In this document: piece by piece, positions 47,101 through 50,100 of the stretch | Layout: each line of letters begins with the position of its first letter | Position numbering within the stretch: the stretch's first letter is position 1 | Assembly: GCF_011045215.1 (NCBI RefSeq) | Contig: NZ_CP049201.1 | Direction: 5' to 3' (one strand) | DNA: 64,000 bases | Origin: Escherichia coli | Lineage (GTDB): Bacteria; Pseudomonadota; Gammaproteobacteria; Enterobacterales; Enterobacteriaceae | Made by a program: the position numbers

Positions 47101-50100
47101 AGTTGAATGGGTACGGCACGCCAGATAAAGCGCGGTTCGGTCGGATCTTTAACGAAACGCGCCACGATGGCATTCGCGACAATCACCGCGCCGAACACCG
47201 GAACCTGTGTCCAGGCGAACTGCGAGGTCGTTAAGCCGCCTGCGTCAATCAGGATCACCGGCGAGACAGCCACCCAACTCATCATGGGGATATAGCTTAA
47301 AGAGATGGTTGCTGCGCCAAAGAGGAACAGCCGATTGCAAAAGACATTACGAAAATCGCGCAAGACGCTTTTGGCGCTAAATGGAACCGCGCCGCGCTTC
47401 ACCGTCTCTGGCATCGCCAGCAGTAAGCCAACAAATGAGATAAAACCCATAACCGCAATGATGGCAAAAAGGACTTTCCAGTGCACAAAGTGCATCAGAG
47501 CTGCGCCGGAAAGCGGGCCAATAATCGGCGCAATCAGTACGATGGAGGTGATAATCGCCATCAACTTGATCCCTTTTGTCTGTCCGAACGCCTCCTGCAC
47601 CGTGACATAACCAACGGTAGCAATAAAACAGATACTGGTGCCCTGAATTGCACGCGCGATAAGAAACTGTGTCATAGACGTTGTGAACATTGTCGCGGCG
47701 CAGGCAAGGGTAAATATTAGCGCCCCGGTAATCAGCACCGGCCTGCGGCCAATCCTGTCGGAAAGCGGCCCCAGCAGCCACTGTAACGCCATACCGCCCG
47801 CGAGATAGAGACTGACGGCTGCCGGGGCCAGACTGACATCGGCATTAAAATCACGGACCACATTAATGATCCCCGGCTGGATCAGGTCCGTCGACAGATA
47901 GGCGGCAAAGTCATACAAAATCAACGCCATCGGGAAAAACAGCGTAGCGGCATGGCGGGCAAAAAAACGTGGCATAACAAACAACTCCTTGTCCGGAGAA
48001 CCCCAACGGGGAAAACGAAATTCAATACCGTCGGTAATGACGAAAGGCAGGCGAGAAGGGCAAATGTACTGAATTTCATGTAATCAATCACACTGCCTGT
48101 GAACACACAGACAGAGAAATACCTTCTGACTCCAGGTCAGAATGTATAACGATTACAAATAGTCATCAGCACATTACACCTCTTGAATTGATGGGTTGCA
48201 TAGAAAATATACACCTTAAGTGTAATTAAAATTTGCGGTTAATCAAAAGAGCGCGGTGGAAAGGGGAATATCTGCCGGGTACAGGAAATGTAAAACGCGA
48301 GCCTGTTTCCGGAAAAATGTATCGTTTGCAGACGAACAAAAATAGCCTGGAAAGCGCCTCGGGGAACGGGAAATTGCCGGGTGAGAATGGTTTTGTTAGT
48401 CGCTAAAGTCGGGCCATCTTATCAACAGGTGACGGATCGCCATGACAAACTTCACGACCAGCACGCCGCATGACGCATTATTTAAATCTTTTCTCATGCA
48501 CCCTGACACCGCGCGGGATTTTATGGAGATCCACTTACCCAAAGATTTACGTGAACTGTGCGATCTCGACAGCTTAAAACTGGAATCCGCCAGCTTTGTC
48601 GATGAAAAATTGCGGGCGCTACACTCCGATATTCTGTGGTCGGTAAAGACCCGGGAAGGCGATGGCTATATCTATGTGGTGATTGAACATCAGAGCCGTG
48701 AGGATATTCATATGGCCTTTCGCCTGATGCGCTATTCCATGGCAGTGATGCAGCGCCATATAGAGCATGATAAACGCGGTTGCTACCGCTGGTCATCCCG
48801 ATGCTGTTTTATCACGGTAGCCGTAGTCCTTATCCCTGGTCCCTGTGCTGGCTGGACGAATTTGCCGACCCGACTACTGCACGGAAAGTTTATACTGCAG
48901 CGTTCCCGCTGGTGGATGTCACTGTCGTGCCAGACGACGAGATTGTGCAGCACCGCAGAGTCGCCCTGTTGGAGTTGATCCAAAAGCATATTCGCCAGCG
49001 CGATCTGATGGGGCTTATCGATCAACTGGTAATATTACTGGTTACAGAGTGTGCTAATGACAGCCAGATAACTGCGCTGTTAAATTACATTTTACTGACT
49101 GGCGATGAAGCGCGTTTTAATGAGTTTATCAGTGAACTTACCCGTCGAATGCCACAACAAAGGGAGCGAATAATGACGATTGCAGAGCGAATTCATAATG
49201 ATGGATGGCTGTTAGGGATGGAAAAGGGGAAAGAAGAAGGGGAACAACGCCTCCTTAGATTGCTTTTGCAGAACGGTGCGGATCCTGAATGGATACAACG
49301 ATATACTGGACTTTCGGCAGAGCAAATGCAGGCATTAGAGCAACCCTTGCCTGAAAGCAAGCGCGATCCATGGATCGAGTACTAATCAGAGACTGATGAC
49401 AAACGCAAAGCTGCCTGATGTGCTACGCTTATCAGACCTACATTACCTCTGCAATCTATTGAATTTGCGCGATTTGTAAGCCGGATAAGGCGTTCACGCC
49501 GCATCCGGTATGAACAAAGCACACTTTGCCTAAGCCATGCTGGAACGTGGCGATGCCCCTGCAAAGATAAAACGAGTCACAGGCGATTCGTGAGAGGAAA
49601 TCAGGGGCCTCGCCACTAATTCGAATTCATTCCATTGCCTGATACACGGCCTCGCCAATTTGCTTCAGTGCTTCGCGATAGGTTTCGCTGAGCGGCAAAG
49701 CGCAGTTGATACGTAGACAATTACGGTATTTGCCGGAAGCCGAGAAAATCGAGCCTGCCGCCACCTGGATTTTCATGCGGTACAGCTGCCGCGCGACGCA
49801 GACCATATCGACCTGTTCAGGCAATTCTATCCACAGTAAAAATCCGCCTTTCGGGCGCGTAATACAGATTTCGCAGGGAAAATATTCCCGTATCCAGCAG
49901 GTATAAAGCGCCAAATTGCGCTGATAGATCTGCCGCATCCGCCGGATATGGCGATGATAGTGACCTTCCAGCACAAACGTTGCCGCCGCCATTTGCGTGG
50001 ACGGTACATTAAAGCTGCTGATGGCGTATTTCATATGCAGCAGTTTATCGTGATAACGCCCCGGTGCGACCCAACCCACGCGCAGGCCTGGTGCAATACT

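Follow-up and report, generated by a model that had tools for sequence, protein, structure and literature searches.

A private single-base deletion splits the nuclease gene rpnD in an Escherichia coli chromosome and leaves its predicted internal antitoxin frame unbroken

Two overlapping open reading frames (ORFs) in the 64,000-nucleotide stretch of Escherichia coli DNA analysed here (the window) are the two halves of one Rpn nuclease gene, rpnD, separated by the loss of one C. The gene itself is already known and characterised, and what the window carries is a pseudogene allele of it; the mutation is new to the collections searched and the type of event is routine. We consider it highly probable that rpnD is here a recent pseudogene private to the strain, produced by an ordinary 1-bp loss, in which the toxin would be dead and the internally encoded antitoxin, RpnD_S, would survive.

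The ORF list places ORF1 at 48442-48978 (+ strand, 178 aa) and ORF2 at 48780-49385 (+ strand, 201 aa), in a different frame. ORF1 matches Pfam PF04754 (Transposase_31, YhgA-like) over profile positions 1-106 (E = 2e-47), the match stopping at residue 112 of the 178-aa product, and ORF2 matches positions 108-202 of the same profile (E = 4.4e-32). A tblastn search with the intact orthologue from E. coli A30 aligned residues 1-112 to frame 1 and 113-314 to frame 3, each with 100% identity, and the two halves of the A30 protein join at window position 48777. Such adjoining matches are far beyond chance: ORF1 and ORF2 are two halves of a single Rpn gene, as the initial annotation had read them when it described an Rpn/YhgA-like gene split over two frames. 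The repaired protein covers positions 1-202 of the 203 in PF04754 (288.6 bits) and scores 171.7 bits against TIGR01784 (NCBIfam, Rpn family recombination-promoting nuclease/putative transposase), for which the cut-off is 52.1; taken by half, the gene scores 94.2 and 68.3 bits, both above that cut-off. The Rpn reading frame is interrupted, which makes the locus a pseudogene of the family. No second Rpn paralogue was found within the window by tblastn.

Its place between mdtM and yjiR identifies the gene as rpnD. The order mdtM-rpn-yjiR is shared by A30, PK5074, a K-12-type strain and NZ_OZ197100, and downstream of yjiR these genomes carry yjiS, GmrSD, symE, hsdSMR and mrr. This synteny in four genomes bears out the earlier naming of the gene as rpnD (yjiP/yjiQ). 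The position of rpnD (formerly yjiP) has been described as the border of the immigration control region (Kingston et al.; PMC4498929, PMC5350276), and the gene in the window is this chromosomal rpnD, on the margin of the hsd/mcr/mrr defence island. The 1.2-kb region is present in 4,246 of the 5,426 complete E. coli genomes, with an Rpn family gene annotated there in every case, and the window gene is nearly identical to alleles annotated at the mdtM/yjiR position. Repaired RpnD is 55% identical to RpnA, and its RpnA equivalog score (381 bits) falls below the cut-off (583).

The lesion is at 48777..48778 (+ strand), where one C has been lost at codons 112/113 (CGCCGG to CGCGG), within the stretch 48775-48790 near which the junction had been claimed. 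In the alignment, the other three alleles (A30, PK5074 and the K-12-type strain) read AAACGCCGG and the window reads AAACGCGG; the missing C corresponds to nt 337 of the 945-nt reference gene. The same gap appears at this site in the indel lists against A30 and against NZ_OZ197100. When the C is re-inserted, a 945-nt gene is restored that has no differences from the A30 gene (0/945 nt) and encodes a protein identical to WP_218076203.1 (314 aa). The rpnD of A30 (NZ_CP028745.1), the same in every nucleotide bar that C, is in frame and annotated as a functional Rpn family protein, whereas the frame in the window is broken. Because the gene equals that of A30 apart from one C and the flanks differ from A30 by 1-4%, the lesion arose late compared with the divergence of the alleles; the absence of further decay in rpnD likewise indicates that it is recent. 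Along the chromosome, the rpnD allele (48000-49500) has no mismatch to A30 save the missing C, and the flanks at 47500-48000 and 49500-51400 have 11-23 mismatches per 500 bp. This pattern suggests a possible mosaic or recombination tract around rpnD.

The 5' part of rpnD (48442..48777, + strand) holds native codons 1-112 and PF04754 positions 1-106, and continues into an out-of-frame ORF1 tail (48778..48978, + strand) of ~66 unrelated codons ending in TGA at 48976-48978. The 3' part, which is ORF2 (48780..49385, + strand), holds native codons 114-314 and PF04754 positions 108-202, including the conserved PDDEI motif and the variable C-terminal domain. Alignment with RpnA locates the active-site residues D11 (48472-48474), D63 (48628-48630), E82 (48685-48687), Q84 (48691-48693) and R94 (48721-48723), all on the + strand; mutation of these residues in RpnA abolishes or alters activity (PMC5350276). 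All five precede codon 113 and are therefore kept in ORF1. The PD-(D/E)XK signature residues and the PDDEI motif are aligned identically in RpnA and RpnD. The PD-(D/E)XK core is the N-terminal part of the Pfam domain, the last 81 domain residues lying outside it (PMC5350276). The break falls just before the final core strand, and the PDDEI segment and C-terminal domain are also lost. An AlphaFold2 model built from a 6-sequence alignment, whose low confidence (pLDDT 56.9, pTM 0.35) limits it to the order of secondary-structure elements and makes it weak support for the placement of the break, has a helix (91-109) and a strand (117-122) flanking that point. A PDB sequence search with the repaired protein returned nothing at E <= 0.01; a crystal structure of RpnA_S has been reported in the literature.

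From the normal start, translation reads 112 native residues and then 66 that are out of frame; the remaining 202 codons lie in the -1 frame without an efficient start of their own. The truncated product, with its five catalytic residues retained, has likely lost nuclease function: it would have neither the last core beta-strand nor the PDDEI segment nor the C-terminal oligomerisation domain, and the toxic full-length protein, RpnD_L, would not be made. We also considered a separate ~200-aa 'YjiQ' protein translated from ORF2. This is unlikely, as Shine-Dalgarno pairing is weak at the upstream starts in ORF2 (TTG at 48780, -2.1 kcal/mol; ATG at 48801, -2.7 kcal/mol).

Rpn genes encode a second, smaller protein, RpnS, which specifically blocks the toxic full-length cognate RpnL (Zhong et al. 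2023, PMC10400941). In RpnA the internal start is M244, with a ribosome-binding site in codons K240/E241, and the mutant that targets the ribosome-binding site and internal translation start carries K240R+E241D+M244L (PMC10400941). The homologous elements are present downstream of the lesion. A Shine-Dalgarno sequence, AGGGAG (49161..49166, + strand), spans codons R241/E242, which are homologous to K240/E241 of RpnA. It lies 6 nt upstream of the ATG at 49173 and, at -7.6 kcal/mol, has the best anti-Shine-Dalgarno pairing of the in-frame ORF2 starts. This ATG is M245 of the repaired gene, and RpnD RERIM245TIAER aligns with RpnA KESLM244TIAER, so that an internal in-frame start with its ribosome-binding site stands at the position of the RpnA internal start. 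The predicted RpnD_S ORF (49173..49385, + strand) is unbroken and encodes 70 aa. On its own, the 70-aa RpnS peptide had no significant Pfam match.

The four-amino-acid repeats described for Rpn genes are also in place. Protein and DNA alignments put the repeat region at 49215..49250 (+ strand, codons 259-270), beginning 14 residues after M245, and in Rpn genes the repeats start 8-20 residues after the internal Met (PMC10400941). Repeat number varies between strains: the E. coli alleles, 306, 314 or 318 aa long, are set apart by blocks of 4 and 8 residues. All rpn genes have been reported to contain an internal transcription start site (PMC10400941). We found a sigma-70-like site at 49057..49086 (+ strand; ATGACA, an 18-nt spacer and TAAATT, with TG) that matches by consensus only and is invariant in five divergent alleles; the promoter scan that includes it returned 3 sites against 2.9 expected from shuffles. 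The site fits the reported internal transcription start and is a candidate rpnS promoter at the level of consensus.

By homology, then, the internal gene-within-gene appears intact, with a candidate promoter (49057-49086), AGGGAG, ATG 49173 and 70 aa, and the locus would combine a toxin that is dead with an orphan antitoxin that survives. Like the described RpnL/RpnS systems (PMC10400941), this rpnD has a PF04754 nuclease, an internal Shine-Dalgarno sequence and ATG, a repeat helix and a place in a defence island; unlike them, its toxin frame is broken and at most the antitoxin half, predicted here from sequence, is possible. All five RpnS proteins have been detected in K-12, where RpnD_S was seen and RpnD_L was not (PMC10400941). 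By analogy, RpnD_S is probably still expressed here, as it is in K-12 despite the nonsense codon, the K-12 data coming from a different allele, of the 306-aa type with fewer repeats.

Across the 5,426 complete E. coli genomes, a 78-bp query spanning the junction found no identical match; the closest ones, at 98.7% with one gap, came from 24 genomes. The 178-aa product of ORF1 is absent from a collection of 15 billion proteins, in which a 194-aa product of ORF2 occurs once, on a Logan contig of SRR11014969. Judged by these sequence matches, the lesion is private to the strain in the collections searched.

Among 17 loci taken at even steps down the match ranking, rpnD is intact in 14. Each broken locus has a different lesion, and at least five are independent when that of the window (a 1-bp deletion at codon 113) is included. 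The K-12-type strain has a nonsense change (CAG to TAG) at codon 104, NZ_OZ197100 a 7-bp deletion at window-equivalent position 48828, E. coli MB50 (NZ_CP073949.1) an ERIC-like insertion of ~115 bp at locus positions 700-814, and O157:H7 Z1835 a 13-bp tandem duplication at nt ~762-792 of the rpn gene. The insertion in MB50 rpnD, which resembles an ERIC/IRU element, has ~10 bp (nt 447-456) duplicated on either side. In Z1835 the duplication closely follows the internal RpnS start, and RpnL and RpnS are both thrown out of frame. The rpnD locus of a second O157:H7 genome, TR01, differs in length.

These independent lesions raise the question of whether loss of RpnD_L with RpnD_S kept is adaptive and hence recurrent in E. 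coli, in which case the frameshift here would be one instance of selected conversion to a free-standing RpnD_S expressed from its own internal promoter. The benefit could be relief of self-toxicity or neutralisation of incoming cognate RpnD_L, and an orphan RpnD_S could guard the cell when cognate rpnD alleles enter it, or could modulate the other paralogues. Several observations are consistent with this: the five lesions, in the window, the K-12 type, NZ_OZ197100, MB50 and O157:H7 Z1835, are at different positions; over-expressed RpnD is among the most toxic of the paralogues (Kingston et al.); RpnS block is specific to the cognate RpnL (PMC10400941); and in the window neither the RpnS ORF nor its ribosome-binding site is damaged. 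However, four of the five lesions fall in the part of the gene that precedes the internal start, and this part makes up 77% of its length. The two proportions match, and there is therefore no sign that RpnS is being spared; with five lesions, we rejected sparing of the antitoxin as a signal. Furthermore, the Z1835 lesion falls within the RpnS part itself, rpnD is intact in most of the sampled strains, and the lack of any substitution after the lesion leaves no time in which selection could have become visible. We therefore regard selected toxin loss as unlikely, both as a recurrent process and as the origin of this frameshift, and prefer an ordinary, recent 1-bp loss.

An ordinary deletion presupposes that the missing C is real and not an artefact of sequencing or assembly that conceals an intact rpnD. 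An error would account for a single-base lesion that occurs in no other complete genome, and it would equally leave a sequence that becomes a known intact allele on repair. Against it stands the Logan contig SRR11014969_113, which is 100% identical to window 42801-49509 over 6,709 bp with no mismatch or gap, the deletion included, a comparison between non-independent DNA samples if the window assembly was also made from SRR11014969. Its identity with the window, set against 89 differences from A30, places the contig in the same strain. Logan assembles its contigs from k-mers that occur at least twice in a run. The lesion lies in a CC dinucleotide and not in a homopolymer, and it is the only unpaired 1-bp indel inside a gene in the ~37 kb compared with A30; all other unpaired 1-bp indels are intergenic, and the window is therefore not an indel-noisy assembly. 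In NZ_OZ197100, by contrast, a relative with a visibly less clean sequence, frameshifts are flagged in both rpn and yjiR. Taken with the read assembly that reproduces the deletion, this makes an error unlikely, in line with the initial annotation, which had leaned away from a sequencing error.

NZ_OZ197100.1 is the closest complete genome over 12 kb (99.2%), and its rpnD and yjiR lesions fall within positions 22443-25033 of the locus. The frameshift in its yjiR is due to 1 bp at window position 50560, and yjiR in the window is without that change. At 40691-40705 the window has paired -1/+1 indels, 14 nt apart and beside a G8 run, relative to both A30 and NZ_OZ197100; they lie inside a pentapeptide-repeat protein gene (by its NZ_OZ197100 position) and would alter a few codons locally.

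A programmed frameshift had been raised as a possible explanation; through -1 ribosomal frameshifting or transcriptional slippage, full-length RpnD would still be made. The geometry is that needed for such a signal, as ORF2 is in the -1 frame relative to ORF1 and overlaps it by ~200 nt, an arrangement of two overlapping ORFs also seen in dnaX and the IS3-family transposases, which use programmed -1 frameshifting. A TAA at 48771-48773 stops the frame of ORF2 4 nt ahead of the lesion, and a -1 shift would therefore have to occur within 48774-48978. Unlike dnaX and the IS3-family genes, rpnD has no slippery heptamer of the form X XXY YYZ in this zone, where the longest homopolymer is TTTT, and no stimulatory RNA structure: folding of the 127 nt downstream is no more stable than that of shuffles (MFE -30.2 kcal/mol, shuffle mean -34.2, z = +1.17). 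Nor is the two-frame layout conserved, as a recoding layout would be; the junction occurs in 0/5,426 genomes, and the relatives examined have either a single frame (14/17 sampled loci, the nearest allele among those in frame) or a different lesion. We find recoding hardly credible here, and the strain-private deletion explains the two frames.

K-12 rpnD is the closest known parallel, being the same gene at the same mdtM-rpnD-yjiR place, inactivated early and left as two ORFs (PMC4498929, PMC5350276). Most E. coli encode a complete YjiP, and in K-12 a point mutation creates a premature stop (PMC4498929). The rpn gene of the K-12-type strain is flagged 'internal stop' by PGAP, in agreement with the initial annotation, which had pointed to two annotated genes (yjiP and yjiQ) at the K-12 locus. 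The break itself differs, being a nonsense codon at 104 in K-12 and a 1-bp deletion at codon 113 in the window. The K-12-type strain has TAG at codon 104, 26 nt upstream of the window lesion, and keeps the CC, whereas the window has CAG at codon 104 and a single C at the lesion; the two alleles are also only ~91% identical (a ~9% nucleotide difference) and belong to repeat-length classes of 306 and 314 aa, respectively. That both genes carry one ancestral lesion kept across strains, as their breaks at most 26 nt apart might suggest, is refuted by this alignment and has virtually no chance of being correct. The initial suggestion of a conserved lesion fails on these grounds, and on the absence of the junction from complete genomes and the intact state of most sampled loci.

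We recommend that the locus be annotated as one frameshifted rpnD pseudogene and not as two genes. The 70-aa RpnD_S ORF (49173-49385) merits an annotation of its own, since the small antitoxin may still be produced. The lesion is a further independent knockout in a toxic defence nuclease whose loss has recurred among E. coli strains. Its significance beyond annotation is little, the mildly notable angle being the recurrent, independent loss of the toxin half; a census of such alleles at population scale could show whether Rpn antitoxins persist longer than the toxins.

The surroundings of the gene were also examined. PADLOC (2023), which contains no Rpn model, gave no match. The intergenic region between the divergent mdtM and rpnD genes (47985-48441) is 457 bp long, and the promoter scan predicted no + strand promoter for rpnD there. 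A search of 47900-49700 against Rfam returned sub-threshold REP-type matches only, downstream of rpnD (ES036, 33.4 bits against a cut-off of 37.6; naRNA4, 32.4 bits against a cut-off of 59.5). REP-type palindromes are located at 49434-49515, between rpnD and yjiR.
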